DNA from: Thermoproteus tenax Kra 1
GTDB taxonomy: Archaea > Thermoproteota > Thermoprotei > Thermoproteales > Thermoproteaceae
Assembly: GCF_000253055.1 (NCBI RefSeq)
Contig: NC_016070.1
Location: forward strand, 210,001-242,000
Direction of reading: 5' to 3'
DNA length: 32,000 bases
Shown here: in pieces, positions 5,810 through 30,208 of the stretch
Layout: each line of letters begins with the position of its first letter
Position numbering within the stretch: the stretch's first letter is position 1
Made by a program: the position numbers and the translations under genes
Notes under the pieces: generated by a model
The model's database searches: none
What the model saw: the letters and a program-made list of their open reading frames with translations, nothing else
What the model was told of the DNA's origin: nothing

Positions 5810-6967
5810 CTACGCGAGCGCCGCCTTCAACAGCTTTATCACTTCGCCTAGGTGTCTTTCTCTGGCCTCGTCCGCGGTCTCTCCGTCGGCCGGGTCTATC
5901 CTCAGGGGGTATATGGCGCGGCCGTCTCTCATACGGATCGGCTTGCCGCTATTTGCCCATCTAACTGCCGCCTCCTCCTCTTCATCCTCGGCCTCTTCCT
6001 CCGACACGGCTGGATATACCAATATCCCAATTTTCGCACTATATTCGCACATATATGTCATCACTTGGAAGCGGCCTCTTGCGATGTAGCCCGGCCTGTC
6101 TGAGTATTTGCACTCCACCACGGCTTTCACGTCGGCGTTTGCGACAGTTAAATCCGGTCTCCCCCTCACCTCGTCCCCGGCGACCTCCTCTATTATGGAG
6201 TGGTGCGGCAATGCTCTGTTAAGATACACCGCCAGGGTTTTACCGTCCCTTTCGACTAAGACGGCGCGTTTCTCCGCGTCTATCCCCACCGTCCTCCAGC
6301 CCAAGCGCCGTAGGGCATCTAACACGAGCGTAGCTATGTACATCTCGTATAGGCGCCAGTTGATGAACTTCAACGCCTTCCCAACGCCCCTCCTCTCCCC
6401 CACGTATACCTCTCCCTCGACGAGCGCCTTGGCCGCCTTGTAGATAGCCCACCCCTGTCTTAGCCACGGCGGCGCCTCTCTTACGTCTACTGCCGCTGTG
6501 CCATATGCCTTGGGCAACCTTTTGGCGATCCGCCTCAGCCTCTCGGCGTTCTCCCTCATCTTCTCATCGAGGATAGCCTCCCTCCCCCACTTAGCTACTT
6601 TTAGGGCCATGCGCCGCAGTATTCCATACTCCGGCGCTTTAAGCGAAGGGAGATACGTCAGCGAGGCGTATACTCCAGCAGGCAGAACAGCCACTGTCCT
6701 TCCTACGTCTAAGGCGCCGAAGACATCGTCACCGTATACGACAGCAAATTCCCTATAAACCAAGAGGTCCCTAAGTGCGGCCTTCACCACTCTTGTCATA
6801 GCATTTACAAACTCGGCCAACAACGCGGAGGCTACTGTGTGTCTCTCCTCCTCCGATCCTCCCAGGAGCTTCACGGCCTTCCCCCACTCGACGTAGTGTT
6901 TTATGTACCAACGGGCCGTCAGCTCTAACAACCGCCTATCCCTAAGGCGCCACTCAGCGGACCCCAC
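5810..6967 (-). CDS. McrC-like subunit with a PD-(D/E)xK nuclease core
   Basis: Lies 3 nt downstream of the McrB-like gene on the same strand. 'RPDLTVANADVKAVVECKYSD' has the D...ExK pattern typical of the McrC C-terminus. Confidence 0.65.
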   Translation of the reverse strand: MGSAEWRLRDRRLLELTARWYIKHYVEWGKAVKLLGGSEEERHTVASALLAEFVNAMTRVVKAALRDLLVYREFAVVYGDDVFGALDVGRTVAVLPAGVYASLTYLPSLKAPEYGILRRMALKVAKWGREAILDEKMRENAERLRRIAKRLPKAYGTAAVDVREAPPWLRQGWAIYKAAKALVEGEVYVGERRGVGKALKFINWRLYEMYIATLVLDALRRLGWRTVGIDAEKRAVLVERDGKTLAVYLNRALPHHSIIEEVAGDEVRGRPDLTVANADVKAVVECKYSDRPGYIARGRFQVMTYMCEYSAKIGILVYPAVSEEEAEDEEEEAAVRWANSGKPIRMRDGRAIYPLRIDPADGETADEARERHLGEVIKLLKAALA

Positions 6968-6970
6968 GGG

Positions 6971-8326
6971 CTACGACTTACGCCTCCTCCTCAGGGCGAA
7001 TCCCCCAGACGACATCTCAATCAGCTCTTCAGCTCGCGGCTCGGCGAGACCCAAGGCCTGGTAGGCGCGTCTAAGCCTCTCGGCGTGAATTAACGCGCTG
7101 GGCGGAATGTCGCCTCCTCTATTCATGTTCTGATATGCGCTGTAGAGATCTTTATCTGTCTGGAAAACGTTCTCACTTACGTCAAATTTCACGATGGTGA
7201 ATCTCCTCAAGAGGGCCTCCCCCAGCAGAAACAGGTTTCTAACGTCGCGCGTGTTCATCGTGGCTAACACCCTGATCCTCTTGAGAGGGGCATCCCCCAT
7301 CTCTCTATAGTTCCGCAGGAAGGCCCTCGCCTCCTCGTCGGCCTTTTCGCCGTATCCCTCGATCTCCTCCACCAGCGACTTGGGTATTTCCCAGTCTTCG
7401 GGACTCGGCGATCTGAAGATAGAGAAGAACTCGCCGAAGGCCTTGTCTGCATCTGCCCTATTTATCTCGTCGATGATGAGGAGAAGGGGCCTCCCGCAGT
7501 TTCCGGCGGCCCTGTTGTAGGCCTTTATCAACAAGCCGCTCTTCCAGACGACGGAGCCCTCCCTTATGGTTTCCCCTCCGATCACGTCGCGCCTAAACCA
7601 CAACGCGTTCGCTGTAGCCAAAATGTAATCGCTCCCCGTCAGCCTCTTGGCGAACTCCACAGCCAACGTCGTCTTCCCCACCCCCGGCGGACCAACAAGC
7701 AACACGTTGCCGGCGTACAGCGCCGCCCCCACCTTCTCCGCCACGCCGGGATACAAGCCGCGTAGTTGCTCAACAGCAACCTTGAAGGGGGCGACCTCTA
7801 TGCCGCCTTTACACCTAGGTACAACATAGTTCCCGCTTCTCCTCGCCAGATCTAAGACAGCTTCAACTATCCTGCAGTCCACCTCGTGAAGCGACCCAGG
7901 CGCCTCAATCTTAAGCAGAAAGCCCTCCCCGCCCTCTAGATAGGCTAGCACATCGATGAAAAATTTGTAGTTCCACCCCTCTCTGCGCCTGTCAGGCCAG
8001 TACTCGCACTGGCACCAATCCACAAGGTCTTCCTTCGAAACTCTGCCGATAGCCACCACCTTCGAGTGGTACCACTCCGGCGATCCACTTGACGTGGGCA
8101 CTGCCAACACATACACCTCTCCCATTTTCTCAACGGCCTCCTTCAGCTTCTCAAAGTGCTCATACTGGGCAAACGCCCACAGGATTTTGCCATCTCTCTT
8201 CTTTGCCTTTAACGCCTCTAGACATTGGGGATCGCACTGGTCTGGATAGCGCGGCTTGAGCTCGCCTGCGATCTGCGACAGCGCGAAATGCCAGTTTGTG
8301 GCGGTGCCCCTTATTATAAAACACAT
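6971..8326 (-). CDS. McrB-like AAA+ GTPase with an N-terminal EVE/PUA-like domain (type IV restriction)
   Basis: Walker A 'LLVGPPGVGKTT'. Walker B 'LLLIIDEINRAD'. McrB signature 'LATMNTRDVRN...EALLRRF'. The N-terminal ~170 aa ('CFIIRGTATNWHFAL...ILWAFAQ...VYVLAVPTSS...VVAIGRVSKED...GWNYKFFIDVL') resembles an EVE/ASCH-type reader fold; this last point is inference. Confidence 0.8.
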   Translation of the reverse strand: MCFIIRGTATNWHFALSQIAGELKPRYPDQCDPQCLEALKAKKRDGKILWAFAQYEHFEKLKEAVEKMGEVYVLAVPTSSGSPEWYHSKVVAIGRVSKEDLVDWCQCEYWPDRRREGWNYKFFIDVLAYLEGGEGFLLKIEAPGSLHEVDCRIVEAVLDLARRSGNYVVPRCKGGIEVAPFKVAVEQLRGLYPGVAEKVGAALYAGNVLLVGPPGVGKTTLAVEFAKRLTGSDYILATANALWFRRDVIGGETIREGSVVWKSGLLIKAYNRAAGNCGRPLLLIIDEINRADADKAFGEFFSIFRSPSPEDWEIPKSLVEEIEGYGEKADEEARAFLRNYREMGDAPLKRIRVLATMNTRDVRNLFLLGEALLRRFTIVKFDVSENVFQTDKDLYSAYQNMNRGGDIPPSALIHAERLRRAYQALGLAEPRAEELIEMSSGGFALRRRRKS

Positions 8327-8355
8327 AAAGTTGAAATTAAAAACCGATCTAATAT

Positions 8356-9261
8356 GTGTTAACGTTGTTCAACAGACGCATCGGCAAGAGGACGTTGAGG
8401 GAGCTTGCCTGGGAGCTCTACAGAGGTGGGGCCTACAGGCCGCCCCGCTCCGAGCTGGAGCTCGCCCAACTGGTCCAAATCCAGAGGAGGATCTCGGGGG
8501 GCGTGCCGGTGCCCAAAATGCCGTATGCCCCCGGCAATAGGAAGGTGGGGAGGATATGGACCTTCGACCTCCCGCCTGTTCTGACATGCCCCTACGCCAC
8601 CTTCTGCGGGAGGCCGGGGTCCGCCGGGCTCTACCGCGGGAGGGGGCTGGTATGCTACGACATAAACATCGCCAGGTACAACCCCCTACACCTCCTGAGG
8701 GAGTACATCAACTTCATCCACGTCGTGAGGGAGGGCTACAGCTGGCTTAGAGACTGGACCCGCTTCGTCGTGGACTATAGGGGTGCGAGGATAATTAGGT
8801 TCCACGTTGGTGGAGACTTATTTTCATACTGGTACTGGGGCTACCTCAAGAGGCTGGCGTCCGACTTCCCCCACGTGACGTTCTACCTCTACACGCGGTC
8901 GTTCCCCATTGTGGCGGCGTCGCCGGAGCGGCCGCACAACCTGGTGGTCCTCATGTCTCTAGACGGGGCCAACTACAAGGCCTATGAGAAATACGGCGCC
9001 TACTTCGACCACATCACGTATCTAGCCGCTGGCGAAGACGCAAGGGGCCAGATCCCCGCGATAGATGCCCTGGCTAAGTGGGCTGCCCAAAACGGCAAGA
9101 GGCTTATCATATTCCTAGAACACAGAAGACTCCCACAGCTGAGACAAGCCCTGGAGAAATACAGCCAGTACATCTGCCCAAACGAGCTAGGCGTAAATAC
9201 GACATGCGAAAGGTGCAGACGCTGCTTCGCGCCCCCAAGGGACAGACATTTTACGGCTTAA
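8356..9261 (+). CDS. Cys-rich protein of unknown function (possible Fe-S/Zn enzyme; weak recollection of the phage 'GP88'-type family)
   Basis: GTG start, 29 nt from the divergent McrB-like start. Motifs are 'TCPYATFCGRPGSAGLYRGRGLVCY', 'IRFHVGGDLFS' and a C-terminal 'ICPNELGVNTTCERCRRCF'. The family assignment comes from memory only. Confidence 0.5.
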   Translation: MLTLFNRRIGKRTLRELAWELYRGGAYRPPRSELELAQLVQIQRRISGGVPVPKMPYAPGNRKVGRIWTFDLPPVLTCPYATFCGRPGSAGLYRGRGLVCYDINIARYNPLHLLREYINFIHVVREGYSWLRDWTRFVVDYRGARIIRFHVGGDLFSYWYWGYLKRLASDFPHVTFYLYTRSFPIVAASPERPHNLVVLMSLDGANYKAYEKYGAYFDHITYLAAGEDARGQIPAIDALAKWAAQNGKRLIIFLEHRRLPQLRQALEKYSQYICPNELGVNTTCERCRRCFAPPRDRHFTA

Positions 9262-9441
9262 TACGGCAAAAGTCGGTTCCACATGCTAGCTCCGATTTGA
9301 CATTCCGCGTTGGGCAACGCCATCAGCGCCGCCTTTCATCGTAGAGCGTACAAGACGCCGACCAAGCTCTATGTACGATAAGCGGTTGGATTAGTTCTGA
9401 GCTAGATCTTTTGGATATTTCTAAGTCTAATAGGCGATGAC

Positions 9442-10191
9442 TCAGCTCTTTCCGTGGAACTCTCGGCTGTCCCCTACAGCTCCTCCGAATTGCACGGCGC
9501 CTAGCCCAACCCCGCGGCTCTTGCCCAAGCCCAGAAAGTTGGCAAGTGAAACGTAGTACGAGAGCTTGTCCATGTATCTGTCGTCCTGTACCACATACTT
9601 CGCGGTGCCGTAGAAGCCGTAGAGAGACCTCCTTCCGTCGTACTTTACCTTCACGACGCAACTGGGCCTGTGGCACCGTAGGTCGGCAAGGTCGACATAT
9701 TCATACACCCAGCGGAGGAAGTTCCGATCGAGCTTCTCGACAAGCCCGAGCTTATACGCCGTTATGACGAGCCACTTGAAGACGCGGAGCGGCTCGGGGA
9801 GGAACGCCAGCTTGGCCCTCCTCCTCTCCTTGGTCTTAACGGCGAACTGCACAGGCGTTATGGTCTCGAGAACGAGGCGGTTTGCCCCGACGTCTTTCGG
9901 CTCAAACCAGCGCACGGCGACGTCTTCGACGGCCACGCGGGCTCTGCCCAACGCCACGACGTCCGGCCTCTCGGCCGGCGGCTCCCGCGTCACGTAGACC
10001 ACCTCCACCTGCGTCCCCGGCGGATAGGCGACGGGCCGCCCCCACACAGGCCTCCCCTGGACAATGGGCGGCCAGACGGACAGCGCCTTGATTCCGCGCG
10101 AGGTCAGCAGGCCGTGCACAAGGCGGGGCGTCCAGCCGGCGAGCGCCAGGGGATCCAGCGCGTAGCCCCTGAGCGCCACCCTGAATATCAT
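9442..10191 (-). CDS. cas6: Cas6 CRISPR repeat endoribonuclease
   Basis: The internal ATG at 10191 forms an ATGA overlap with the stop of cas3''. The product begins 'MIFRVALRGYAL...' and has the C-terminal glycine-rich loop 'LGLGKSRGVGLGAV' typical of Cas6. Confidence 0.78.
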   Translation of the reverse strand: MIFRVALRGYALDPLALAGWTPRLVHGLLTSRGIKALSVWPPIVQGRPVWGRPVAYPPGTQVEVVYVTREPPAERPDVVALGRARVAVEDVAVRWFEPKDVGANRLVLETITPVQFAVKTKERRRAKLAFLPEPLRVFKWLVITAYKLGLVEKLDRNFLRWVYEYVDLADLRCHRPSCVVKVKYDGRRSLYGFYGTAKYVVQDDRYMDKLSYYVSLANFLGLGKSRGVGLGAVQFGGAVGDSREFHGKS

Positions 10192-10766
10192 CTCCTGTTC
10201 CTCGACGCCACCTCGTAGTCGCAGTCGCTGAGAAGGCCGAGTAGCGCCATCCCGGCGTATCTGGCCGGGCCTTCTAGGGCTTCTAGGAAGTCGCGACTCA
10301 CCGCCGAGTCGTAGATGTCGTCTTCGGCGTCGCGGAACAGAAGGTTGAGCGCCTCGTTGAAGAGCTCGGTCTCCGGTCTCCAGCTGATTGTAATTTTGCA
10401 CCTCGGCTGAAATGTTACCTTGCCCAAGGGCTGGAGCTCCTTGAAGGAGTAGTGGTGCCTAGCGACGGCATACACGGCAAGCCTTCTGATCCTCCAATCG
10501 GCGCTGTCGAGCGCTTTTTGTACAGCCACGGCGGATTTGGCCTCGTGGTGCGGGAAGTACCTATCTGCGTCCTTATACTTCCTGTCCGCCTTCCCAACGT
10601 CGTGTGCATAGCCCACGAACACGATTAAGTCTCTAGCCAGCGCCTCCTCTACGCCGAGGACCCGCGCCAGCTTGGGCGCCAGCCACCTCCCCCTCGCCGC
10701 CATACACGACGCGACCTCCTCCAGATGCAGTTCGAGGGGCTCTCCAGGGCCTGCGAGACACGTCAT
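10188..10766 (-). CDS. cas3'': Cas3'' HD nuclease
   Basis: The ATG at 10766 forms an ATGA overlap with the cas3' stop. HD motifs 'GYAHDVGKADRKY', 'FPHHEAKS' and 'VARHHYS'. Confidence 0.82.
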   Translation of the reverse strand: MTCLAGPGEPLELHLEEVASCMAARGRWLAPKLARVLGVEEALARDLIVFVGYAHDVGKADRKYKDADRYFPHHEAKSAVAVQKALDSADWRIRRLAVYAVARHHYSFKELQPLGKVTFQPRCKITISWRPETELFNEALNLLFRDAEDDIYDSAVSRDFLEALEGPARYAGMALLGLLSDCDYEVASRNRR

Positions 10767-12238
10767 ACCCCCTCTCCGCACTTCTTGAGCACAGCCCCAA
10801 GCCCCTCTCTGTATTTCACAACGCGTATCCTCGGCACATCACCGTGCTCAGCGACGGCGTCAAGGAGCCACCTCATCAGTTCCCCGCCTTCGTAGCTACG
10901 GGGCGGCTCAATCCGCCTTTCTCCGACATACGCCTCAAACTCCAGCTGTTCCAGCCTGTCCAACGGGACTGTGAAGGATTCCTCGGGCCCCTCCCCCACC
11001 TCCGCCTCCAGCAGGGCGTGGCGGACGAAGGAGCCGCCCTCCTTCAACAACTTTTTCCTCAAACGGCCTGTGTCCACCCTCTCCTCCTTCATGACCGTCT
11101 CCAGAAACCAGAAGTGCCTCTCGTCCACCTCGGTCTCCCCTCGGAGGAGGTGCATGTAGCTGTCCGGCTTGTGCGGGAGACGCCAGTTCTTGACCTTGAG
11201 GAGCTTCTCATCGACCTCGCCGATGAAGTATATCTCGCCTACGCAGCTCTCCCTGTTTCTGCAGACGCGCCCTACCCGTTGCACGACCCGCTCCACCTCG
11301 TCGGCTTCGGTTATCAACACGTCGAAGTCTACGTCGACGCCGGCCCCAATCGCGTCTGTGCCCACCACGATCTGCGCCTTATCGAGCTCGCGCTCAGCCC
11401 TCTCGCGGTCTCTCCGCGTCATGAGGGAGTGCACCGCCGGCGCCCCCAGCGTCTCGGAGAGGCGCTGGACTCTACAGACGTCGTTAACTATCACGAGCAC
11501 CCTCTTCCCTTCCTCCGCTTTGCGCCTCGCCACCTCCTCTATATTGTCGACCCTCCCCACCTTGTAAGTTACGTTCGACATCCGCCGCTCGAACTCCGGA
11601 TCGGCGACTTTGACGTCGTCGCCCCTCTCCTCGTCTCTATCCCCAAGCGACACAAACCTAAAGCCCTTGAATACATCCCTCTTCCACTCGCCAAGCGTTG
11701 CCGACATGACGACGGTGGGCACGCCGAGCTCCTTGAGGAACCGCACGGCCGCCTTTACTGCGGCGAGCTCCTTCCTGGAGCCAGCTGCCATATGCGCCTC
11801 GTCTAGGAAGACGCACGAGGGGTAGATGTAGGCGAGAGGTATGTGGTACCTCACCGACGGTCTCTCGGACTTGTAGAACTTCCACATCTCCGCCACGGGG
11901 ACCTTCGCCAGATTGTGGACGAAGGAGTCCAGCGTCGTGAGGACGTACTCCTCGCGGAAGTACGGATCCTTCTCGTATCTGTCCCTGAGGAGGACGTCGC
12001 CGTCTTGATACGCGAACTTTATATCGGGGTGAGCAGAGGCGTACCTCTCGATCTGCTTCCTAATTAGAGCTCTCAGGGGCATGACGTGGATCGCCTTGCT
12101 GCAGAGGCCCTCCTCCCTCAGAGCCTTGTAGAACAGCGGCGCGGCGTAGGTCTTCCCGTATCCCGTCGGAAGCTCCAGGACGATCCTCGAGACGCCCGCG
12201 CGCGCCAGCTCGAGCCCCCTCTCCACCGCCCTACGCAT
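10763..12238 (-). CDS. cas3': Cas3' DEAD/DEAH-box helicase
   Basis: The ATG at 12238 (MRRAVERGL...) overlaps the upstream gene's end by 8 nt. Walker A 'LELPTGYGKTY', 'VFLDEAHM' (DEAH) and 'VVMSATL'. The 105-codon extension in the track ORF is R/G/S-rich and overlaps the upstream gene. Confidence 0.88.
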   Translation of the reverse strand: MRRAVERGLELARAGVSRIVLELPTGYGKTYAAPLFYKALREEGLCSKAIHVMPLRALIRKQIERYASAHPDIKFAYQDGDVLLRDRYEKDPYFREEYVLTTLDSFVHNLAKVPVAEMWKFYKSERPSVRYHIPLAYIYPSCVFLDEAHMAAGSRKELAAVKAAVRFLKELGVPTVVMSATLGEWKRDVFKGFRFVSLGDRDEERGDDVKVADPEFERRMSNVTYKVGRVDNIEEVARRKAEEGKRVLVIVNDVCRVQRLSETLGAPAVHSLMTRRDRERAERELDKAQIVVGTDAIGAGVDVDFDVLITEADEVERVVQRVGRVCRNRESCVGEIYFIGEVDEKLLKVKNWRLPHKPDSYMHLLRGETEVDERHFWFLETVMKEERVDTGRLRKKLLKEGGSFVRHALLEAEVGEGPEESFTVPLDRLEQLEFEAYVGERRIEPPRSYEGGELMRWLLDAVAEHGDVPRIRVVKYREGLGAVLKKCGEGV

Positions 12239-13160
12239 GGCCGAAGAGCGCGCCGAGCGCCCTCCTCTCGCCCTCGGACAGCCCCTTGCTGGCCAACATG
12301 CTCCTCGCCACCTGGTAGAGCCGCCCCCAGTCCTCGGCGACTCTCCACCTCCCGTCGCCTTCTCCATACATCTCGGAGAGAGATGTGGCGCTCCAGATGG
12401 CCGATGCGGCAGGCTCGACGTAGTCCGACCCCGACTCCACGAGCTCGACGAAAAACCATGCGACGCGGCGCATCCTAGAGAGCGCCTCCACAGGCAGTGC
12501 GGTGGCCGTGTAGTAGCTCTCTCCGCCGACGAAAAGCCTCCCCGAAACCCCACCGAGCCTCAGCACGACGAGAGAAGCCGCGTACAGGAGGAGGGCAAGC
12601 CCGCCCAAGTTAGGCGCACGCCGCCACACCCTGTCGTTGACGTCCCACAGATCCCCAGCCGCAGTCCGGTCCTCCACGTCTACAAAGACGTGGTACCACC
12701 TGTCTCCTATCCTCACCCTAGTGAGCCTGTCGAAGGCATCGGCGACTTTTAAAACCGCCCTAGCGATGCCGAAAACCTTCCTCGCCTCTTTGTAGAAGAA
12801 CCGCCCGTCGAGATGCACGAACTCCTTGCTCTCCAAAAGCCCAGAGCTCTGCGAAAAGCTCTCCACAGTCTCAAAGTCCTCCCTCTCCAAGAGCAAGCTC
12901 TGGATGTCGGCCCCACCCTTCCGTTGCTTGCTACGTTGCTGAGCCTTCCTCCTTTCAAGCACAGACTCGATGAAGCTGTTGTACTCCTCGATATAGTAGT
13001 CGATGTCGTCCCACTTCCAGATTTCGGCCCCGGTGGCCATGTAGGAGAGGAGACCGGCCTTGTACACCGCGGAGAGGTGGATGAACTGAGACGCGCTCCG
13101 TAGATCAATTGTTACTAATGTATCGACTCCAGAAGATCTGCCTTTCTTAGCTCCTGGCAT
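12231..13160 (-). CDS. Putative type I-A large subunit (Cas8a-like; Csa4/Csx9-type), assigned mainly by position
   Basis: 309-aa ORF lying between cas5a and cas3' and overlapping both neighbours. I recognise no motif with certainty. Confidence 0.5.
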   Translation of the reverse strand: MPGAKKGRSSGVDTLVTIDLRSASQFIHLSAVYKAGLLSYMATGAEIWKWDDIDYYIEEYNSFIESVLERRKAQQRSKQRKGGADIQSLLLEREDFETVESFSQSSGLLESKEFVHLDGRFFYKEARKVFGIARAVLKVADAFDRLTRVRIGDRWYHVFVDVEDRTAAGDLWDVNDRVWRRAPNLGGLALLLYAASLVVLRLGGVSGRLFVGGESYYTATALPVEALSRMRRVAWFFVELVESGSDYVEPAASAIWSATSLSEMYGEGDGRWRVAEDWGRLYQVARSMLASKGLSEGERRALGALFGHA

Positions 13161-13929
13161 ACTCCTTCGGCAACAGGGCGTAGAGCTCTTTTTCCACTTC
13201 CGGCACGATTTTCACCGCCGTGTATCCCTTCGCTGGCCTTACTCTGATGTAGCCCATCGGCGGAGGGACGTAAAAGGGTTGCCTCTCCGCGTTCAGCCCA
13301 AGGCGCGGATCAAAGAAGTATTCCTCTCTGCATTGAGCCGTCACCTGGCCGTAGTACGGCACCGCGGTACACTCAGAAGCCCAATCAGCCGGGATGTAGA
13401 AGCGCGTCTCTACCTCCCTAGCCCCGAGGTCCTCTGCCGTGAACTTGAGGGGAGTCGCAGCGACCAGCCCCTCCTTCTGCCCGACCCGGTAGACATACGG
13501 GGCCAGCTTCTCTGCCTCGCCGCCTGAGACCAGGAGGTAGGCGGAGTCCCAGAAGTATACCTCGCGCCGCGACCCAACTCCCAAAAAGTTCTGTATCAAG
13601 TCCCGCGCGGTCATCCCGCTCTCGACCACCTTGTCCTCTCTGCCCTTAAGCACCATCTCTATGGCCTTGGGGAGCTTCTTCAGCCTGCCCGGCTTCTGGG
13701 TCATAAAGGTGTAGTGTCTGTAGAGCCCGACCCCCTCGGTATACGGCGGCGCCCAGAATAGGACGAAGTCGGCCCGGGGCGCGTAGAACCGCTCCTCCGG
13801 TCTCACAGCGACCGCGCCCAAGGCGCCCAGTAGCGTGGTAGGCGGCGGGAGGAGCGGCCCCGCCCCGTGCTCAAGGAAGGCCGGCTTGGAGACGAAGGGG
13901 GAGAAAAAATCCAGCTTTACCAACATCAT
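13147..13929 (-). CDS. cas5: Cas5a
   Basis: 'MMLVKLDFFSPFVSKPAFLEHGAGPLLPPPTTLLGALGAVAV' is a typical Cas5 N-terminus. ATGA overlap with the cas7 stop. Confidence 0.78.
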   Translation of the reverse strand: MMLVKLDFFSPFVSKPAFLEHGAGPLLPPPTTLLGALGAVAVRPEERFYAPRADFVLFWAPPYTEGVGLYRHYTFMTQKPGRLKKLPKAIEMVLKGREDKVVESGMTARDLIQNFLGVGSRREVYFWDSAYLLVSGGEAEKLAPYVYRVGQKEGLVAATPLKFTAEDLGAREVETRFYIPADWASECTAVPYYGQVTAQCREEYFFDPRLGLNAERQPFYVPPPMGYIRVRPAKGYTAVKIVPEVEKELYALLPKEYARS

Positions 13930-14861
13930 TCTTCGAAGTACTCAAGCACCCGCTCCTTTGCCCAGTCTATGAGCTCCTCCAACGTAGACAGGCCCGAGTC
14001 ACATGACGTTATCCCCTCGCGGTCGAAGCACGACAGCTCTAACATATCATACAGCGACTTCATCTTCTCCACGCGGGCTTTATTCAAGGCCCAGTAGTCG
14101 CCGTAGCGCGGCGGAGACACCATGAAGGGGTGGGGGTCTGCGACAGCGGCGACGCCGCCAAGAGGCTCGAAAGCAGGCAGATACCGCGCCTTCTTCGCGC
14201 CAAAAAGCATACCGGAGTAGAGAAGCTTCAGAGCGTCAAAGGCTAACTCGGCCCTTTCAAGCCAATCGTCCACGTCATCTCCGTCCTCCAACCTACCGAT
14301 TTTCATCACGTCTATCGCGACAGCTTGAATGTATATGGCCGTGCCGCTCTCGATAGTGAACGGTCTCTGTGCGTCGGGGTTCTGGAGGTTGTAGCGGACG
14401 TGGAACTGCGGCGTGATGACGCCCCTCGCGCTGGAGGTGTCCGGAAGCATGTAGCTGAACATCACCGCGCTCGTCCTCTTGACGGCGGATCCCTTCTCGC
14501 CGCCGCCGGCCTCCTTCGTCGCCATGAAGCCCGTGATGTCCTCCACGACGCAAGTCTTCACTCTGTCGTCGTGCCCAATGTCAGCTCTATCCGCACGCTT
14601 GAAGAAGCCGCCGATCTTCTCATAGCTCGCGCACTCATCACAGACCGGCAATTTCCTCTCCGCTGCGAGCTTGACAAGCGCAGCCATGTAGCCATAGGAA
14701 ATGGACTGTCCCGAGACGCCGGGAGCCGCCGTGATGCGATAGCCGTCGTCCTCGCGGATGAGGACAGGGACAGTCCTGTGCCTGGCGTAGTTCCCCACAG
14801 TCTCGACCATGTTGAGGGCCTCGACCTCCACTCGGAACCGGAAGGCGAACGACACAAACAT
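13926..14861 (-). CDS. cas7: Cas7 (Csa2/DevR family) backbone subunit
   Basis: 'VEALNMVETVGNYARHR', 'GVSGQSISYGYM', 'CVVEDITGFM' and 'KRTSAVMFSYMLP' fit the Csa2 family pattern. Confidence 0.88.
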   Translation of the reverse strand: MFVSFAFRFRVEVEALNMVETVGNYARHRTVPVLIREDDGYRITAAPGVSGQSISYGYMAALVKLAAERKLPVCDECASYEKIGGFFKRADRADIGHDDRVKTCVVEDITGFMATKEAGGGEKGSAVKRTSAVMFSYMLPDTSSARGVITPQFHVRYNLQNPDAQRPFTIESGTAIYIQAVAIDVMKIGRLEDGDDVDDWLERAELAFDALKLLYSGMLFGAKKARYLPAFEPLGGVAAVADPHPFMVSPPRYGDYWALNKARVEKMKSLYDMLELSCFDREGITSCDSGLSTLEELIDWAKERVLEYFEE

Positions 14862-14863
14862 AG

Positions 14864-15214
14864 CTACCTCGCCGCAGACGCCCGTCCCTTCACCGCCTGC
14901 CGCTCACCACCCACCGCCTTCGCAAGCGCCTTAAACGCCACCTCCTTCGCCACAGCCGGTCTCCTCTTAACCAACGCGGCGAAGGCGCGGACAGCCTCAT
15001 CCAGCCCCTCCGGACGGGCACAGCCCTCCAGTGTGCCGAAGTACCTCAACGCATCGTAGAGGGCCTCCATAGCTGTCGTGACGTAGAACTCGTCGTTGTC
15101 CTCAACGCGGGCTAGGCGGTCAAGCGGGCCATAGTACTTCTCACGCGCCAGACACGACAAGACGTGAACCAACGGTTCCAAGGATAGTTTCTTTTGTTCA
15201 GTTTTGTTATTCAT
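14864..15214 (-). CDS. csa5: Csa5-like small subunit (Cas11a)
   Basis: 116-aa alpha-helical ORF, first in the operon and 2 nt upstream of cas7, which is the canonical I-A position. The sequence itself is not diagnostic. Confidence 0.55.
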   Translation of the reverse strand: MNNKTEQKKLSLEPLVHVLSCLAREKYYGPLDRLARVEDNDEFYVTTAMEALYDALRYFGTLEGCARPEGLDEAVRAFAALVKRRPAVAKEVAFKALAKAVGGERQAVKGRASAAR

Positions 15215-15269: not shown

Positions 15270-16899
15270 CCTTCAAATCTCTATCTGAGATTCAATAGCT
15301 GGATGGGGATTGGCGCATGCGCTTGGCTGGAACCCCCTTCAAATCTCTATCTGAGATTCCTTGCTCATAGTCGAAGCAATACATCTTGGGACGGCGACCT
15401 CCTCCTTCAAATCTCTATCTGAGATTCCTCGACTGCGTCGAACTTCATATCGCGCTCAACGCGCACGTACCTTCAAATCTCTATCTGAGATTCCGCTCGG
15501 TTGGACACGTGGACTCGATAGCTTGGCGCATCTGCCTTCAAATCTCTATCTGAGATTCAGATCCATGTGCCGATCTTCGTGTTGCCCGTCTCGTCGAATA
15601 TCCTTCAAATCTCTATCTGAGATTCATAACAAGATCAACCTTGTCGCCAATGAGCTCGCTAAGCAAGGGCCTTCAAATCTCTATCTGAGATTCGAGAACA
15701 TCGCAATAAAGATAACGGAGGAACAGCTACGCCCTTCAAATCTCTATCTGAGATTCCGCCGTACTTCTTCAGCACCTCCTTCACCCGTTCCTTCAGAAAC
15801 CTTCAAATCTCTATCTGAGATTCGTGCAGATATGTGAACAAGCCGTACGCGAAGCCGGTCAGGATAAGCCTTCAAATCTCTATCTGAGATTCGGTCCGTC
15901 TCGATTCGGGATTGGCTGTGATAGTGACAAAAGACCTTCAAATCTCTATCTGAGATTCCAGAAGAGCTCGAACTTTACGACCTTGCGTCCGATATATTCG
16001 TACCTTCAAATCTCTATCTGAGATTCGGCGATTTCAAATACCGCTATGAGGCGATATCCTACTGGGTCCTTCAAATCTCTATCTGAGATTCGAGTAGAGG
16101 TACCCTCCGTCGACGACCGCCCCCTGCGTGATGCTCAGTTGCCTTCAAATCTCTATCTGAGATTCAGGTGTAGTCGGTATAGCTGATGCCGTTGCACTGC
16201 ACCTGGTACCTTCAAATCTCTATCTGAGATTCACGATCTCGCCATGCTTGAGACGAAGCTTAGGTTGGGCTTTCCCTTCAAATCTCTATCTGAGATTCTG
16301 GAGCGTATTTCGCAATACGAGGATGCCGCACATATATCCAATCCTTCAAATCTCTATCTGAGATTCAGCAATCCGCCGCGGGTCGGCGCATGCCAACACA
16401 GCGTCCAACCTTCAAATCTCTATCTGAGATTCAATTGGAGGGAAACCACGGCCGTGCTGACAGACGCCGGCAACCTTCAAATCTCTATCTGAGATTCCCT
16501 GTATTGCCGGCCGTCCGGCCCCTCCACGACGAAGAAGTTCCTTCAAATCTCTATCTGAGATTCATTGCTGATAGTGTTCCTGCTAGTTGTCATTTGGCCT
16601 ATACTAAGCCTTCAAATCTCTATCTGAGATTCCCAGAGTGCTCGATGAGGCGGGCATAGACAGGTACTCCATCACCGACCTTCAAATCTCTATCTGAGAT
16701 TCGTATAGCCGCTCACAGGGGTGAACGATACAGACTGTGCGCCGCCTTCAAATCTCTATCTGAGATTCTGTTTAGGGAGAAGATTAGGGAGAAAAATTGA
16801 AAGAGAAACCTTCAAATCTCTATCTGAGATTCACTATCTCGATGTGAACAACATATGCATCAATGTCGGCGCCGGCCTTCAAATCTCTATCTGAGATTC
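15270..16899 (-). CRISPR. CRISPR array: 25 apparently identical 24-nt repeats and 24 spacers of 39-50 nt
   Basis: The plus-strand repeat is CCTTCAAATCTCTATCTGAGATTC. The first repeat is at 15270-15293 and the last at 16876-16899. Hand-measured spacer lengths sum to 1030 nt, which matches the array span. The reverse complement, GAATCTCAGATAGAGATTTGAAGG, resembles crenarchaeal type I-A repeats (GAATC...ATTGAAAG), so I infer minus-strand transcription with the leader on the right. Confidence 0.97.
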
Positions 16900-17250
16900 C
16901 GGGTATTGTTGTCTTTGTTTCTACGAGCTTTTAAGCTTTTTTCTCACGAGACTGACGTTGATCTCGGCGGACTCTTGAGGTGGCATGATAGCAGTTTTGT
17001 CTATTTTCCGCGGCCGGCTTCTGTCTCAGATAGTTGAAAGTGTGTCTTTGGGGTTCGGCGCCGCCATCCGCCGCGCCTCCGCACGACGATTTATATGCGG
17101 GATCCCCGCTTGACAAAAACACAACGGCGGAGGAGTAGAACGATTTTACAGAAGGAAAGGGCAAGTTGCACGACGATTTATAAACGCCGTGGTCTATATA
17201 GATCTCCTTTCAGTTATCTAGGTTTCTGGTCTTGAAACTCAGTGTTGAGA
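16900..17250 (-). promoter_or_regulatory. Putative CRISPR leader with a TATA-like element
   Basis: The minus strand reads 'gagaaaaaagcttaaaagctcg' (plus 16928-16943), about 30-45 nt from the leader-proximal repeat. A 15-nt motif, gcacgacgatttata, occurs twice (17081-17095 and 17168-17182). The extent of the leader is a guess. Confidence 0.45.
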
Positions 17251-18536
17251 GGATGTAGTGCTAGTTGTGGTGTGTTATGGTTTTGTATGTTGGCGCTGTT
17301 GGGTCTGGGTTTTTGCGGGTGTTGGTGGACGTTCTAGGCCGGTGGTGTTGCGCTTTACATCGCCTCTGGTAGTGTTTTTATTTGGAGGGGGTGAGTTTCA
17401 GGAGGGTGAGGTTGTTGAGGTTGTGCGGAGGTTTCTAGTGGGGGCTGGCTACATGTTGGCGTTTTTGGCGTCAGGACGGGACTGACGTTGTGGCGTATAG
17501 GGGGGCTTTTGGTTGTCGAGATGAGGGGTGTGCCTACTGGTGTTAAGGTTAGGGGGCGTGGGTATGCCTAGGAGTAAAGCGGCGGTGCGTCAGTAGCTTT
17601 GGAATTGGCCTGCGGAGGTGGTGGCCGAGCTTATGGAGCATGAGTACGAGTGGGCGGTTGGCTGAGAGGGGTAGTGAGGCAGCTTAGGGAGAGAGTGGAG
17701 GTGCCGTGTCGAAGGTGAGGTGGGTTGGCGCTTTTGGCTATCATGGGGAGTACGTCCGCGTGTTTAAGAAGAGAGGACACGCGATAGCTAGGTGTGGGTA
17801 CGAGATCTGACTGGCGAGAAAAGATGGGATACAAATGCTGATACCCGGCCGCGTCTAGCTGTGTTGCCCTCGGCGTAGGCAAGCCCAAGGTCTGGGATTT
17901 AGGGCACTATGTGGCGCTATTGTCATTGGGCCAGCTTTGGCACGGAGCTAGACCTCCTCATGGAGGTAGCCTCTTGGAAACACGGTGATGTACTGCCGAC
18001 GTCAAGCAGTTCTATGCGTAGTTGTGGCGGCCGCTGTCTCCAGAGGATATTGTTACACTCCGCGTGTTAAATCCCGCCTTGGCTGCTGGAGGGCTCCGGT
18101 GGGCGCCCGCACTTAGCCTGTCTCCATCACGCCGGTTGCGCCCAGTGAGCCTACCGGGGGTATTACGGAGCGTTGACCCATCCGGCTGTTCGGCGGGCCG
18201 CGGCTGGGGACCGCCTTTTATGTGCTACACCACCTCGGGGGGCTCTCACCTCGACGCCGCACCTCTCTGCGACTTCGGAGCCGCATCGTTGTCAACGCTG
18301 TGGAAGCTGTCCCCGATTCTTTCAATGGTCCGGAGTGGGACTACCGGCTCTGTTCCGCCGACCGGCGGCGTGGACAAGTTACCACCCCCGCCTCTGGACT
18401 AAGACCTCGTCGACTGCGCGTTATCTCAGAGAGGGTGGCAAACCGTGATCTGACCGGCGGCTGGGAAGTGGGAGGATGTCGTGTTAACGCCCCTGCCTGC
18501 GCCTCTTATGTTGAGTACGATTGGCCACGGCGGGGC

Positions 18537-25076: not shown

Positions 25077-25350
25077 GGCTGATCTGCTCTACGTCCTTAT
25101 TTGTCTTTTGGCTTTGTGGGGTAGCGGCCGTTGGGCGCCTCGGGGCGGCGCAAGCCTCGAGGCGGGGGCCTGGGCGGCGCCTCTTAGGAGGAGGGCTCTC
25201 CTAAGGTCTCTCGATGTGCTGAGGAGGGTTATGAGTCTGCCGGGCCCGGTGGCTAGGCGCGGCCTAACTCAGTACCTCTCGGCCACGGAGGGGGCAAGCC
25301 GTCGCGGGTGAGGACCAGGTGGCCGCGGCTGCGTAGATCGGCATGAGGCC

Positions 25351-26598
25351 CTAGGTGCGGGTTTTCATTCCCCACTCCCTCAGGGCGTTGAGGCCCATGT
25401 ATATTCCTCTCTGCATCTGGTGTATTTGGTACAGGGCTTTGGGGCTTGTGATCCTGTAGCATGGGCCCCTCCTCTGGCCGTGTAGCCTCGCGTAGGGGGC
25501 CACCGAGGCGTTTATGAGTTGGCCGAGTGGGCCGTAGCGCCTCTCCACCTCCCGGGGGCACCACCTGAGGCCGAACAGCGCTGTGGAGGCGTAGTACAGG
25601 GCGTCTTCCCAGGGGGCTATGTACATGGCTCTGGCGGCTCCGTGGCCGCGGCGTTCGACGTAGTCCACGTATTTAGTTGGGTCAAAGCTGTTGACGTAGA
25701 TGTACCAGTTGCTTCTGCCTATTGCGCTTGCCCCGGCGGCTAGGTAGACGTCGTGGTCGACCACGTATTCGTCTATCAAGCCGGCGGTTCGGCTGAAGCA
25801 CCAGGGGGTGGCGGGGGCGTAGCCCCGCTCTGAGGCTGTCTCTAGGATGGCGCCGTATAGGGCCTCCTCCTGGGGGTGCCAGGGCCCCTCCCCCCTCTGC
25901 CTCAGTGTTTTTCTGAGGCCGGGGCCCGGCATGAGAGGGTAGAAGGTGACTTGGCCGACGCCGAGGGATAGAGCCAACGCGGCCTCTCTCCTCAAGGTGG
26001 CGGGGGTGTCCAGCCGCGTGCCCCAGATCATGTCTATGTTTACGGTGGGGAACCTCCCCGCGGCGAGCCTCGCGGCTTGTGCCCCCTGCGCCGCCGTGTG
26101 GGACCTGCGGCCGAGCTCGGCGAGTTTGGCGTCGTAGAGGCTCTGTAGGCCGATGCTCAGCCTCTCCACGCCCGCCTCCTTGAGCACGGAGATGGACTCG
26201 TCTGTGACGTCGGCGGGGTTGGCCTCAACGCTTATGTCCAACCTGCCGAAGTGGCTCTTCGCCACGTCGAGGATCTCGGCCAGGGCGTAGACGTCGACGG
26301 TGGGGGTGCCCCCGCCCACGTATAAGACGTCGACCTTGGCCCCCTCGGCTGCCTCCGCCAGGAACTGCAGCTCCTTTGCCAAGGCCGCCTTGTACCTCCT
26401 GTAGAGGGCGGGGTCGTATGGGTATCTAACGAAGCTACAGAACCTACAGAGGGATCTGCAGAAGGGGATGTGGATATACAGCCCAAACCGGCCTTCGAAC
26501 CTCCTCAACGCGGCGGCGTGTCTCCGGGGGTCTGCTGGCGATCTGCTCAACCTCCCCACGAACCGCTCCACCACGAGGGCGGCGGCGTGTGTAATCAT
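25351..26598 (-). CDS. HemN/HemW-like radical SAM protein (oxygen-independent coproporphyrinogen oxidase family)
   Basis: 'LYIHIPFCRSLCRFCSF' CxxxCxxC motif and 'LYVGGGTPT'. The 415-aa length and layout are typical of the HemN family. Confidence 0.8.
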   Translation of the reverse strand: MITHAAALVVERFVGRLSRSPADPRRHAAALRRFEGRFGLYIHIPFCRSLCRFCSFVRYPYDPALYRRYKAALAKELQFLAEAAEGAKVDVLYVGGGTPTVDVYALAEILDVAKSHFGRLDISVEANPADVTDESISVLKEAGVERLSIGLQSLYDAKLAELGRRSHTAAQGAQAARLAAGRFPTVNIDMIWGTRLDTPATLRREAALALSLGVGQVTFYPLMPGPGLRKTLRQRGEGPWHPQEEALYGAILETASERGYAPATPWCFSRTAGLIDEYVVDHDVYLAAGASAIGRSNWYIYVNSFDPTKYVDYVERRGHGAARAMYIAPWEDALYYASTALFGLRWCPREVERRYGPLGQLINASVAPYARLHGQRRGPCYRITSPKALYQIHQMQRGIYMGLNALREWGMKTRT

Positions 26599-26618
26599 GT
26601 GGGGCGTGGCGCGGCCCC

Positions 26619-27437
26619 CTATAAAGGTGCCATCTCAGTCCCCAAGTCTATAGGCGGCGCGCGGTACGGGGCAGAGGTAACCACCACGTCCACATGTGGG
26701 GCATAAGACGCGATGTTGTGCTCGTCTATGCCCCCCGACGCCCCCACCACCACGCGGGGGTTCACCGCCCTGATCCTCGCCGCCGCCTCCGCCACCTCCT
26801 CCGGGGTCATCCGCTCCAGCTGGATATAGCTAAAACCTGCCTTCGCCGCCTCAACGGCCTCCTCGACGGTGGACACCTCCACGCCGGCTGGCCTAACCGC
26901 AACCGCCCTTGCGGCCTTCTGCAGAGCCCCATCCCCCAGAAAGACCAGGTGGTTTCTAAAGACGAGTACGCCGTCGGAGAGGCAACACCTGTGGACCATA
27001 CCCCCTCCCGCCAGCACCGCCTTGTGATACAGGGCCCTCAGGCCGGGCGGCGTCTTCCGCGTAGCCGCCACCACGACCCTTGGGTTGACCCGCCGCGCCA
27101 GCTCCACCAGCCTCCTCGTCTTCGTGGCGACCCCCGAGGCCCAAGCAACGACCTCCTGCGCCGTCCTCCAGGCGGCGTGTAGACACCGGGCCTCCCCCAC
27201 CGCCCGCAACACGACGTTGCCCCTCCGCGCCAGCTGGCCGCTCCTCTTAACCACCTCCACCTCCCCGCAGCCCGCCAGCCTGTACACCTCAGCCGCCTCC
27301 TCAGACCCAGCTACCACCGCCTCCTCCCTGGCGAAGAGTTGGGCAACCCCCCTCAGACCCCCGATGCCTAGAACCTCAGTAGTCAAGTCGTAGCTCCCCA
27401 GATCCTCCAAAAGCCAAGCCTCCAGCCGGCTCCTCAT
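26619..27437 (-). CDS. Quinolinate phosphoribosyltransferase-fold protein (NadC/ModD family; the context favours ModD-like)
   Basis: 'LLEDLGSYDLTTEVL' N-terminal signature. 272 aa. ATGA overlap with the upstream ModA/WtpA-like binding protein gene. Confidence 0.7.
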   Translation of the reverse strand: MRSRLEAWLLEDLGSYDLTTEVLGIGGLRGVAQLFAREEAVVAGSEEAAEVYRLAGCGEVEVVKRSGQLARRGNVVLRAVGEARCLHAAWRTAQEVVAWASGVATKTRRLVELARRVNPRVVVAATRKTPPGLRALYHKAVLAGGGMVHRCCLSDGVLVFRNHLVFLGDGALQKAARAVAVRPAGVEVSTVEEAVEAAKAGFSYIQLERMTPEEVAEAAARIRAVNPRVVVGASGGIDEHNIASYAPHVDVVVTSAPYRAPPIDLGTEMAPL

Positions 27438-28402
27438 TTGATAAACCCGTACTTCGACAAATCCATCTTCTTCAGCGACTCTATGACGCAGTTGCCTAAC
27501 TCCGTGTAGGAGGCCACGAAGGCCTCGAAGTGGCCAACCCTTATGGTTTTGACCGGCGGGCCAAGGAGGACGGCCACGGCTTTGATGGGCGGGTCCTCCA
27601 CGAAGTCGTAGGGCGGCTTGAAGACGTACACATAGTAGATCCTCCCGTCCGCCTCGGCTGTGTATGGCTCCCAGTAGCTAGTACCGTTGCCGGCGGGCCT
27701 AAGCTGGAGGCCTTTGCCGAGGAGGAAGGGGACGTAGGCGAACATGCAGCGGCCCGCCCCCGCCTCGAACTTAGCCCAAGCGCCGTCCAGGTTGGGGGCT
27801 ACGTCTATCATCTCTGTGTTGGGGAGGGAGCTGGGTATGTAGATGTAGAGCGTGCCGTTGTATACAAACCTCACCCCCAGGGCGGTGTACTTCGCCGTGA
27901 GGTTGACGCCGAGGTCCCGAGACAGCATCCACGCGGCGGCGAGCTCCCTATAGCCGATGGGGGCCTTGTTGGGGTCTGCGAAGACCGTCTTGGCGGAGGC
28001 CAGCTCCTCAAGCGTCGTGGGGCTTCTGCAGACGAGGGCCAGCTTGAACCTCCCCAGCGAGTAGGTCTGGAGGGCTCCCGCCCTCTCGGCATCCGGCCTT
28101 AGCTCTATGTCTACGCATGCAAATATGTCCGGTCTAGCCCCGCCCTGTATCCTCCTGAGGCCTTCTATACATCCCATAGACTGTATACCCCCTGTGCCGA
28201 GCCCCGCGGCCGCTGCAGCATCCCTAACCACCTTGACCAACATAGGCGCCACATACCCCAGAGGCGAGCCCGAGCACGTCTTGGTCGCCGTTGTAGCCGC
28301 CGTCTCGGGTGTCTTCTGTGGTGGCTGTTGGGACTGTAACAGGAAAAAGACTATTGCTACCAAGACTAGAGCTATGACCCCGATTAGGATCACCCGTTGC
28401 AT
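27434..28402 (-). CDS. Oxyanion (molybdate/tungstate-type, ModA/WtpA-like) ABC substrate-binding protein
   Basis: N-terminal TM/signal 'VILIGVIALVLVAIVFFLL' followed by a Thr-rich linker. 'SMGCIEGLRRIQGGARPDIFACVD' resembles the ModA/WtpA 'GSS..L..qI..Ga.pDvf.saD' motif. Confidence 0.65.
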   Translation of the reverse strand: MQRVILIGVIALVLVAIVFFLLQSQQPPQKTPETAATTATKTCSGSPLGYVAPMLVKVVRDAAAAAGLGTGGIQSMGCIEGLRRIQGGARPDIFACVDIELRPDAERAGALQTYSLGRFKLALVCRSPTTLEELASAKTVFADPNKAPIGYRELAAAWMLSRDLGVNLTAKYTALGVRFVYNGTLYIYIPSSLPNTEMIDVAPNLDGAWAKFEAGAGRCMFAYVPFLLGKGLQLRPAGNGTSYWEPYTAEADGRIYYVYVFKPPYDFVEDPPIKAVAVLLGPPVKTIRVGHFEAFVASYTELGNCVIESLKKMDLSKYGFIK

Positions 28403-28623
28403 GTGTATATAAAAATTGTGGTTTATCTATATAACTTATATACGAAATATAAAGTTTAAATTTTTTAAAGTTTTATACTTTTGTATTACATAAATGGCTT
28501 TCTTTTAATTTTTGTCTTATTACTTTGTTTATATATATATTTTTATTCTTATCTTTTATTAAAAATAGTTTATATAGTTTTTTATTATTATTTTTTGTAT
28601 AGGTAACGCCTAAATCCCTGGCT
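28403..28623. promoter_or_regulatory. Extremely AT-rich 221-bp divergent intergenic region
   Basis: The sequence is almost entirely A/T ('tatataaaaattgtggtttatctatataacttatatacgaaatataaagtttaaatttttt...'), between the divergent binding-protein and permease genes, in a GC-rich background. Confidence 0.7.
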
Positions 28624-29325
28624 GTGTTGTTCTCTGTGGTTCTGGCCTTGGCCGCCGTTGCGTTTATAGTACTCCTACTATTTATACTGCCTATCGCCTA
28701 CCTAGGGGCGCTTCCGCCGGGGTTCGCGGAGACGTTTCTCCTCACTGCTCTGTTTAGCGGGGCGGCGGCTGGGCTTGGCCTGCTCCCGGGGCTGGCCGTG
28801 GCCGTCTGGGGCCGTGGGGGCTGGCGGGCGGCCGCGGCGCAGATCCTCTACGCGCCTGCCGTCGTGCCGCCTACGGCGGTGGGGGTTCTCCTCCTGGCGG
28901 CCTTTAGGAACCCCCTCCTGCCGGAGTGGCTCTACGGCTTTTTTGTGAACAGGGCGGCGGGGGTCCTCCTGGCGATGTTCGTCATGGCTCTGCCGGTGTC
29001 CTACGCGGTTTTCGACGGAGCGCTTAAGGACGTGAAGGCGGAGCTCTACTTCAGGTCGCTGGGGCTTGGGGGGCTTAGGCTTCTGGCGGCTCTCCTCCTC
29101 TCGCTGAGGAGGGCGGCCGCGGCGGCTTTCCTGCTGTCCTTCCTCCGGGGCTTCGGGGAGCTTGGGGTGCTCCTCATTTTCGCCTCCTACCCGCCAACCA
29201 TGCCCATCTACATATACCAGACCTTCCTCCAGGAGGGGTTGGGCGCCACGGTGGCGGCCTCCATGGCCGTCGCGGCTCTGGGGGTCTCCACGGCATACCT
29301 ACTGAGGCTATGGCTGTCGAGGTGA
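28624..29325 (+). CDS. ABC transporter permease (ModB/WtpB-like)
   Basis: 233-aa polytopic protein. 'LRGFGELGVLLIFASYPPT' resembles the ModB/CysTW 'GEFGa' segment. GTG start. Confidence 0.7.
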   Translation: MLFSVVLALAAVAFIVLLLFILPIAYLGALPPGFAETFLLTALFSGAAAGLGLLPGLAVAVWGRGGWRAAAAQILYAPAVVPPTAVGVLLLAAFRNPLLPEWLYGFFVNRAAGVLLAMFVMALPVSYAVFDGALKDVKAELYFRSLGLGGLRLLAALLLSLRRAAAAAFLLSFLRGFGELGVLLIFASYPPTMPIYIYQTFLQEGLGATVAASMAVAALGVSTAYLLRLWLSR

Positions 29326-29990: not shown

Positions 29991-30022
29991 AGCTTATATT
30001 ACACCTGCTGTTGGCGAAACAA

Positions 30023-30093: not shown

Positions 30094-30208
30094 CCTTTCG
30101 CTATTTCCTTCCTAGGGCTGGCCATTAGCTAATGGTGATCCACCCTGGGGTCTGGCGATCTGGGGGCGACCGGCGGCGGAGGATTCTTGTTACACGTCAC
30201 AAAACGTG

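Follow-up and report, generated by a model that had tools for sequence, protein, structure and literature searches.

We analyzed a window of 32,000 nt from the chromosome of Thermoproteus tenax Kra 1 (RefSeq assembly GCF_000253055.1, contig NC_016070.1, positions 210,001–242,000 of the forward strand; coordinates below are counted from the first letter of the window unless a genome is named), which contains TTX_1, a clustered regularly interspaced short palindromic repeat (CRISPR) array. Immediately outside the leader of this array, at its distal end, an approximately 0.5-kb block is strongly enriched in G and T on the plus strand. The explanation that we favor, with modest confidence, is that this block is non-coding DNA representing the leader-side part of an outward-pointing zone of the kind seen in Pyrobaculum, and that its skew was inherited. 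It probably has no function of its own. The original prediction for this DNA stated that no annotated feature explains the skew. Instead, we found that the block falls in the outward-skew zone that flanks the arrays of the sister genus, and that it is shared with Pyrobaculum neutrophilum in a cassette of cas genes and CRISPR array. The two features on which the analysis centers are as follows.

17242–17737, plus strand: G+T-skewed non-coding block, delimited as a maximal-scoring segment, with a homolog 86–87% identical in P. neutrophilum.

15270–16899, minus strand: CRISPR array TTX_1, 25 repeats, read leftward toward csa5 and named through the 8-nt tag UUUGAAGG (PMC4005679).

The block is 496 nt long with 75% G+T on the plus strand, and the visible skew (approximately 17230–17800) is wider than the segment limits. 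Throughout the genome (a single contig of 1,841,542 bp) only four maximal G+T segments were found, among which the block scores highest, and the genome maxima of G+T at scanning lengths of 200, 300, and 500 nt are all located inside it. The 300-nt maximum reaches 0.783, compared with a genome mean of 0.50 and a standard deviation of 0.036. The counts initially made by hand were reproduced (52/60 at 17261–17320, 43/60 at 17321–17380, and 49/60 at 17381–17440), and G+T falls to 36/60 and 29/60 by 17741–17860. Coding strands of T. tenax have a mean G+T of 0.513 and a maximum of 0.634, intergenic DNA on the sense strand has a mean of 0.499, and gene 5′ ends have a mean of 0.514, with none of 734 reaching 0.65. 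The 5′-end and intergenic means rule out a general 5′-end or intergenic skew in this organism. Thus, the skew proved significant on recounting, the block is a unique extreme of the genome, and comparable skew is not common in T. tenax DNA.

Both components of the composition are affected, with a GC skew of about +0.5 and an AT skew of about −0.4. The share of T among pyrimidines rises from 45% to 70% and that of G among purines from 55% to 74%, indicating that both transitions are biased to a similar degree. The two components end at different places within 17201–17860: the excess of T over A is gone by about 17560, and the excess of G over C lasts to about 17800. The only tandem repeat detected in the block is a 9-nt unit which is present twice. 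Two internal repeats of 15–16 nt (D5 and D8) are not kept in P. neutrophilum and were treated as chance occurrences.

To characterize the surroundings of related arrays, we surveyed 22 leader-distal flanks in seven genomes, each anchored on a conserved leader core. G+T on the outward strand averages 0.67 in the first 100 nt and declines to 0.50 at 1.7 kb, and several Pyrobaculum flanks, none of them homologous to the block, hold values of 0.7–0.89 for up to 1 kb. The profile of the T. tenax flank (0.74, 0.77, 0.75, 0.72, 0.68, 0.65, then approximately 0.55) begins at the distal end of the leader and matches in shape that of 15 or more Pyrobaculum flanks. We also sampled 20-kb array-bearing regions of P. 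neutrophilum, Pyrobaculum arsenaticum, and a further Pyrobaculum genome (G017). All 21 extreme segments that lie outside arrays in these samples point outward, and they occur on both sides of the arrays; 11 array-free samples contained only three extreme segments. Across 18 arrays, the skew is stronger and longer on the leader side than on the trailer side. Pyrobaculum islandicum, which has only a type III-A module and lacks cas3, cas1, and cas2 (PMC3396285), carries outward blocks on both sides of its arrays (8/8 outward), implying that Cas3 and the adaptation proteins are not required. Thus, most Pyrobaculum arrays share the same polarity without sequence homology: the strand leaving the array is rich in G+T, and the bias fades over about 1–1.5 kb. 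A separate compositional feature was noticed about 640 nt upstream of arrays of the type III family, where a block of about 235 nt with loose A/C-rich repeats is 90% A+C on the array-sense strand. It occupies the same place in two species (P. neutrophilum Crispr1, L044:10951-11189, and P. islandicum Crispr3, G014:C1:1403161-1403392).

Outward skew is not confined to CRISPR arrays. In four Pyrobaculum genomes, the DNA on both sides of the rRNA operon is likewise rich in G+T on the outward strand, at approximately 0.6–0.73 over 1–2 kb (values computed by hand from GC content, GC skew, and AT skew; the four flanks are probably orthologous and not independent), suggesting that the effect is not CRISPR-specific. 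Literature searches for a skew described beside CRISPR arrays returned none, and the word "skew" is absent from the Pyrobaculum CRISPR survey (PMC3396285); outward composition bias flanking arrays and the rRNA operon is apparently undescribed in print.

The genes that neighbor Pyrobaculum arrays carry the same signal at silent sites. Beside Crispr5 of Pyrobaculum oguniense, an outward-facing nurA paralog (Pfam NurA, E = 4e-22) has a G+T content at third codon positions (GT3) of 0.87, locally up to 0.98, and beside Crispr3 of P. arsenaticum a csx1 gene that faces the leader has a coding-strand GT3 of 0.29, which drops to 0.16 nearest the leader. The skew thus tracks the polarity of the array and not the strand of the gene, so that neither codon preference nor transcription of the gene itself can be the cause. 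Comparison of 15 orthologs of the nurA paralog showed a GT3 of 0.73–0.89 beside Pyrobaculum arrays, about 0.50–0.55 away from arrays, and 0.52–0.53 in two Thermoproteus genomes where the gene is directly beside leaders. Thus, Pyrobaculum shows a strong effect and Thermoproteus a weak one. The slight skew beside T. tenax arrays TTX_4–7 fits this difference between the genera, which suggests that the block at TTX_1 is an imported footprint. The nurA paralog of Pyrobaculum calidifontis (L072, G013:C1:1210897-1211901) has an in-frame TGA and a GT3 of 0.87; it is located 5 kb beyond the trailer end of Crispr6, and the whole 7 kb between them is skewed outward (0.55–0.76).

The sole homolog of the block was found upstream of P. 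neutrophilum Crispr6, an array recognized by coordinates equal to those in PMC3396285, at the same position and with 77% G+T. Identity between the two organisms is 79% over 16877–18098 as a whole, 60% in the first 96 nt of the leader, 77% in the leader core (16997–17189), and 86–87% in the skewed block, followed by 77% in 300 nt of adjoining non-coding DNA. For the flanking cas genes, identity is 90–92% (79–90% at their third codon positions), whereas ordinary genes are 67–73% identical, and the TTX_1 repeat type is present in only two of 29 genomes of the family, those of T. tenax and P. neutrophilum. These comparisons show that the two organisms share the whole cassette, from cas3 to csa5 through the array with its special repeat and the leader to the block. 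Considering that the cas genes are far more similar than ordinary genes and that the repeat type is exclusive, the cassette must have moved between genera. The block traveled with it, already skewed, and we infer a Pyrobaculum-like donor for the T. tenax copy.

The substitutions between the two copies are also asymmetric. To the right of the array, plus-strand differences with a keto base in P. neutrophilum and an amino base in T. tenax outnumber the reverse in the block (44:18), in the leader (40:16), and in the DNA beyond it (35:19). Left of the array the asymmetry is inverted (199:121 in plus-strand terms), P. neutrophilum being more keto on the minus strand. This means either that the process went on in P. 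neutrophilum or that the copy in T. tenax is relaxing. Two further observations concern the relationship between these genomes. Positions 5825–15180 and 25323–32000 of the window are 91–97% identical to P. neutrophilum, forming a recently exchanged mosaic far larger than the CRISPR cassette alone. In addition, between the equivalents of 18098 and 18190, P. neutrophilum has approximately 1.5 kb which is absent in T. tenax and includes an ORF (open reading frame) on the minus strand; thus, the ORF-free stretch 17801–18536 is partly a deletion scar.

These data can be accommodated by the following scheme. In Pyrobaculum, the strand that runs 5′ to 3′ away from a CRISPR or rRNA locus would lose C and A over about 1–1.5 kb, whatever lies there. 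Most likely, this outward strand would be repeatedly exposed as single-stranded DNA at 85–100°C, ahead of or behind polymerases leaving an RNA locus under very heavy transcription. The deaminated bases (U from C, hypoxanthine from A) could then become fixed as C>T and A>G changes. The skew may thus have been written in a Pyrobaculum-like background and been inherited, slightly eroded, in T. tenax. It is nearly saturated in the block because the DNA there is non-coding. A strand-specific process of C-to-T and A-to-G change had already been put forward in the original prediction, and the similar bias of both transitions, together with the rewritten silent sites in relatives, favors it. In our interpretation, the bias would be mutational and not selected. 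The polarity requires that the surviving single strand run 5′ to 3′ outward, which is compatible with outward transcription (as the non-template strand), with outward replication or repair forks (as the lagging-strand template), or with a 3′-to-5′ helicase–nuclease leaving the array. Resection of 5′ ends from a double-strand break in the array was rejected on polarity, as it would leave the inward-pointing strand single-stranded. As a wider generalization, which we offer tentatively and regard as possible but somewhat short of probable, very intensely transcribed stable-RNA loci, namely CRISPR arrays and the rRNA operon, would in Pyrobaculum, and perhaps in other hyperthermophilic Crenarchaeota, each be ringed by a 1–2-kb zone of outward-polar hypermutation, in which one strand is depleted of C and A and neighboring genes are recoded to >90% G+T at silent sites. 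This would be a localized, lineage-specific process new to print, and its traces, the T. tenax block among them, would remain as fossils of the array site and of the cassette lineage.

The position of the block relative to the array and its leader is described by the following features.

16929–16942, minus strand: promoter-like box AAAAAAGCTTAAAA, corresponding in T. tenax to the CRISPR promoter AAAAACTTAAAAA that is invariant in Pyrobaculum.

16997–17203, no strand assigned: conserved leader core, common to four other T. tenax leaders and to leaders in 18 of 62 Thermoproteales genomes.

17081–17095 and 17168–17182, no strand assigned: box GCACGACGATTTATA, present twice in the leader core, 87 nt apart (repeat D7).

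17177–17184, no strand assigned: palindromic TTTATAAA, formed by the distal copy of GCACGACGATTTATA.

17193–17202, no strand assigned: TCTATATAGA, which follows TTTATAAA in the leader core.

17258–17485, plus strand: spurious 75-codon ORF, a product of the scarcity of A, with no Pfam family and a frame that is not kept.

The invariant promoter motif has been described in Pyrobaculum (PMC3396285), and the P. neutrophilum copy has the exact consensus AAAAACTTAAAAA. The location of the T. tenax box implies that the precursor CRISPR RNA (pre-crRNA) starts about 30–45 nt from the first repeat, with the block upstream of the promoter; thus, the block is not part of the pre-crRNA. It begins about 330 nt from the first repeat of TTX_1, beyond the conserved core, and is devoid of the array promoter, so that it does not belong to the leader proper. 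Homology to the four other T. tenax leaders stops at about 17189–17203, and their distal flanks have a G+T of 0.40–0.62. At other arrays with a divergent gene next to the leader, TATA-like boxes equivalent to TTTATAAA and TCTATATAGA mark the leader end, and at TTX_1 those at 17177–17202 are the sole hint of a possible outward start. The spacers of TTX_1 are unskewed (G+T 0.4975), which says nothing either way.

The block is non-coding. The ORF at 17258–17485 had been regarded as a product of composition and not a credible gene, and this was borne out. It has no Pfam match at E ≤ 0.01 (large protein databases were not searched), and a six-frame search of the 62 Thermoproteales genomes matched it to P. 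neutrophilum only, split over two frames; thus, the conserved protein family that would have spoken for a gene was looked for and not found. A 1-nt indel in the P. neutrophilum homolog puts the second half in another frame, and mismatches between the two organisms are distributed as 11, 11, and 9 over the three codon positions, with no concentration at the third. Searches of the block against Rfam gave no match at the gathering threshold and, when relaxed to E ≤ 5, no relevant one, a tRNA scan gave no tRNA, and folding energies compared with shuffled sequence gave z = −0.46 on the plus strand and −0.35 on the minus strand, that is, no fold signal. Runs of G had been noted on the plus strand and read as G-quadruplex potential. 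The runs exist (15 of three or more G, at the 97.5th percentile), but the potential does not follow, since no motif of four such runs was present in the T. tenax block with loops of up to 7 or up to 12 nt; the P. neutrophilum copy has one or two motifs, which are not conserved. On this evidence, 17230–17800 should be left without a gene call in the T. tenax annotation.

The suggestion that the block might be a decayed viral or mobile remnant found no support from phage, paralog, or protein similarity. There was no match to the block in a phage collection of 50,697 records, and no paralog in the T. tenax genome at either the DNA or the six-frame protein level. The possibility of a nurA pseudogene was dismissed after comparison with 11 nurA orthologs, which showed no colinear similarity except for the translated leader core. 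Weak DNA matches in three genomes (G012, G052, and G022) proved to involve the GT-rich codons of a small gene (TRAM-like by eye only) and of another gene, and were not considered homologs. Scans for the conserved cores in two metagenome scans and one species-genome scan yielded nothing, and hence no third homolog to polarize the substitutions.

Several observations weigh against a purely mutational, inherited origin of the block. The Pyrobaculum genomes are related, so their flanks do not count as independent cases. The block is conserved above the adjoining non-coding DNA (87% vs. 77%, Fisher P = 0.0003) and in a patchy manner, 30–60 identical bases alternating with variable patches, and judged from this pattern some selection on it is possible. 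The left-side substitution asymmetry has no distance gradient; thus, the asymmetry as a whole provides moderate support only. Neither the rRNA operon nor the thermosome and elongation factor (EF) genes of T. tenax are skewed, which again sets this genus apart from Pyrobaculum, and the other four type I-A leaders of this organism have no skewed block at their distal end. Skewed DNA also occurs away from arrays, in a T. tenax sugar-nucleotide operon and in three segments of the array-free P. neutrophilum samples. The GC content of 0.594 (88th percentile) gives no decision on the direction in which the cassette was transferred. Finally, that single-strandedness caused by outward-moving polymerases writes the bias is a step which we infer throughout.

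The higher conservation of the block keeps alive the main rival, a selected non-coding element in the form of an extended leader, a polar terminator or insulator, or an R-loop-prone G-rich transcription unit starting from the TATA-like boxes at 17177–17202, with selection keeping G+T high. Besides the elevated and alternating identity, the 60 nt before the block, including TCTATATAGA, are nearly invariant between the genera, and TATA-like boxes of the same kind are found at the leader ends of other arrays, with a gene following. However, the identity of the block is about that of the third codon positions of the flanking cas genes (79–90%), the skewed zones at other arrays have no sequence homology, and neither strand gives a fold signal. 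Moreover, the overwriting of silent sites extends over at least a kilobase and affects unrelated genes whichever way they face, an effect that a discrete element would have no need of. We therefore consider such an element unlikely, although worth keeping in view. A decayed foreign or gene remnant, such as a virus, a plasmid, or a dead nurA-like or cas gene, with its composition imported or resulting from lost coding constraint, could be accommodated by the 1.35 kb without an ORF inside a cassette that was shared horizontally, by the nurA paralog that fills the equivalent place at other Pyrobaculum leaders, and by the roughly 1.5 kb by which T. tenax is short just downstream relative to P. neutrophilum. 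This origin is nonetheless improbable, considering that the phage, paralog, and nurA comparisons found nothing past the leader core and that decay alone makes no strand skew. We know of no source genome with 75% G+T on one strand.

The machinery of the CRISPR system itself might also have marked its own array, either through Cas3 unwinding 3′ to 5′ from self R-loops toward the leader or through repair linked to spacer integration. The polarity would fit Cas3 traveling leaderward on the crRNA-sense strand, skew is stronger on the leader side than on the trailer side, and TTX_1 gives the most abundant crRNA of T. tenax, crRNA 1.1, which accounts for 10% of small-RNA reads (PMC4005679). This idea is largely refuted by P. 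islandicum, in which all eight blocks are outward in spite of the missing cas3, cas1, and cas2. The Pyrobaculum rRNA flanks share the polarity, and T. tenax arrays adjoining active type I-A genes show little skew; only the slightest probability remains for it. Hardly more credible is a G-quadruplex element on the plus strand or a gene for a 75-aa peptide rich in V, G, F, W, and C. The density of G-runs and the open frame would agree with one or the other, but the T. tenax block has no quadruplex motif, those of P. neutrophilum are not conserved, and the ORF is frameshifted in P. neutrophilum and has neither codon periodicity nor a family.

The zones described here resemble several known systems in part. 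Transcription-associated asymmetry and the GC-skewed R-loop zones at vertebrate start sites (PMC2927911) likewise show an excess of G over C and of T over A on the strand that would be non-template for outward transcription, with a skew that peaks near the start, fades over 1–2 kb, and flips sign across the locus. In our case, the polarity is read from the DNA sequence and the amplitude is far larger, with silent sites of relatives reaching 98% G+T. Also in contrast to them, an inward gene carries the skew on its template strand and highly expressed T. tenax genes show none. In the G+T-rich H strand of vertebrate mitochondria, the accepted cause is single-strand deamination during strand-displacement replication (PMC3269012). 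There, too, one strand loses C and A through C>U and A>hypoxanthine changes, to a degree set by the time spent single-stranded; the zone at issue here is instead chromosomal, of kilobase scale, centered on RNA loci of a hyperthermophilic archaeon, and without a known replication intermediate. GRINS, defined as regions of >500 bp duplicated inside a gene cluster with >80% identity and connected with gene conversion (PMC8256042), have intense GC and TA skews that correlate positively and peak at third codon positions, with amino acids shifted toward Gly, Val, Cys, and Trp. Both skews of the block exceed the mean absolute value of 0.15 by which GRINS are recognized, but the block is non-coding and present only once in the genome, and the zones of separate arrays lack homology to one another. 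Finally, like the conserved leader and promoter of Pyrobaculum arrays (PMC3396285), the block is on the leader side, abuts the core, and travels with the array in the cassette. On the other hand, it lies upstream of the promoter box and is absent at the four remaining T. tenax leaders with this core, and genes fill the zone in relatives.

If the outward skew is mutational, it would mark sites in the DNA of a hyperthermophile at which one strand repeatedly becomes single-stranded, and damage linked to transcription or replication at 85–100°C could be read from genome sequence. Genes beside CRISPR arrays would then be under strong local mutation pressure that deforms their proteins, and the skew could serve as a compositional tracer for horizontally moved CRISPR cassettes. 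If it is selected instead, the CRISPR arrays and rRNA operons of these archaea would carry an unrecognized flanking insulator or R-loop element.

Two further features complete the locus.

14864–15214, minus strand: csa5, on the trailer side of TTX_1, with its coding strand pointing away from the array (GT3 0.66, and 0.92 in the last third).

17801–18536, no strand assigned: unskewed ORF-free remainder of about 740 nt, from the block to a gene for a 112-aa coiled-coil protein, as seen in the ORF list and the comparison with P. neutrophilum.

To the left of TTX_1, type I-A interference genes occupy the minus strand (cas3, two genes without Pfam match, csa2/cas7, and csa5), and to the right of the ORF-free stretch the small coiled-coil gene is followed by a DprA-like/ComF-like gene pair.

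Elsewhere in the T. tenax genome, the second strongest skew segment (G000:C1:1175095-1177936) covers three co-oriented genes on the minus strand with coding-strand GT3 of 0.79, 0.74, and 0.67 and no CRISPR array near; one resembles an NAD-dependent sugar epimerase/reductase and one a sugar-phosphate nucleotidyltransferase. An intergenic stretch of 225 nt with 79% G+T on the minus strand (G000:C1:1060089-1060313) was found in a cas-rich region about 16 kb from the nearest array, between a coiled-coil gene (PD-(D/E)xK nuclease-like) and the next co-oriented gene.

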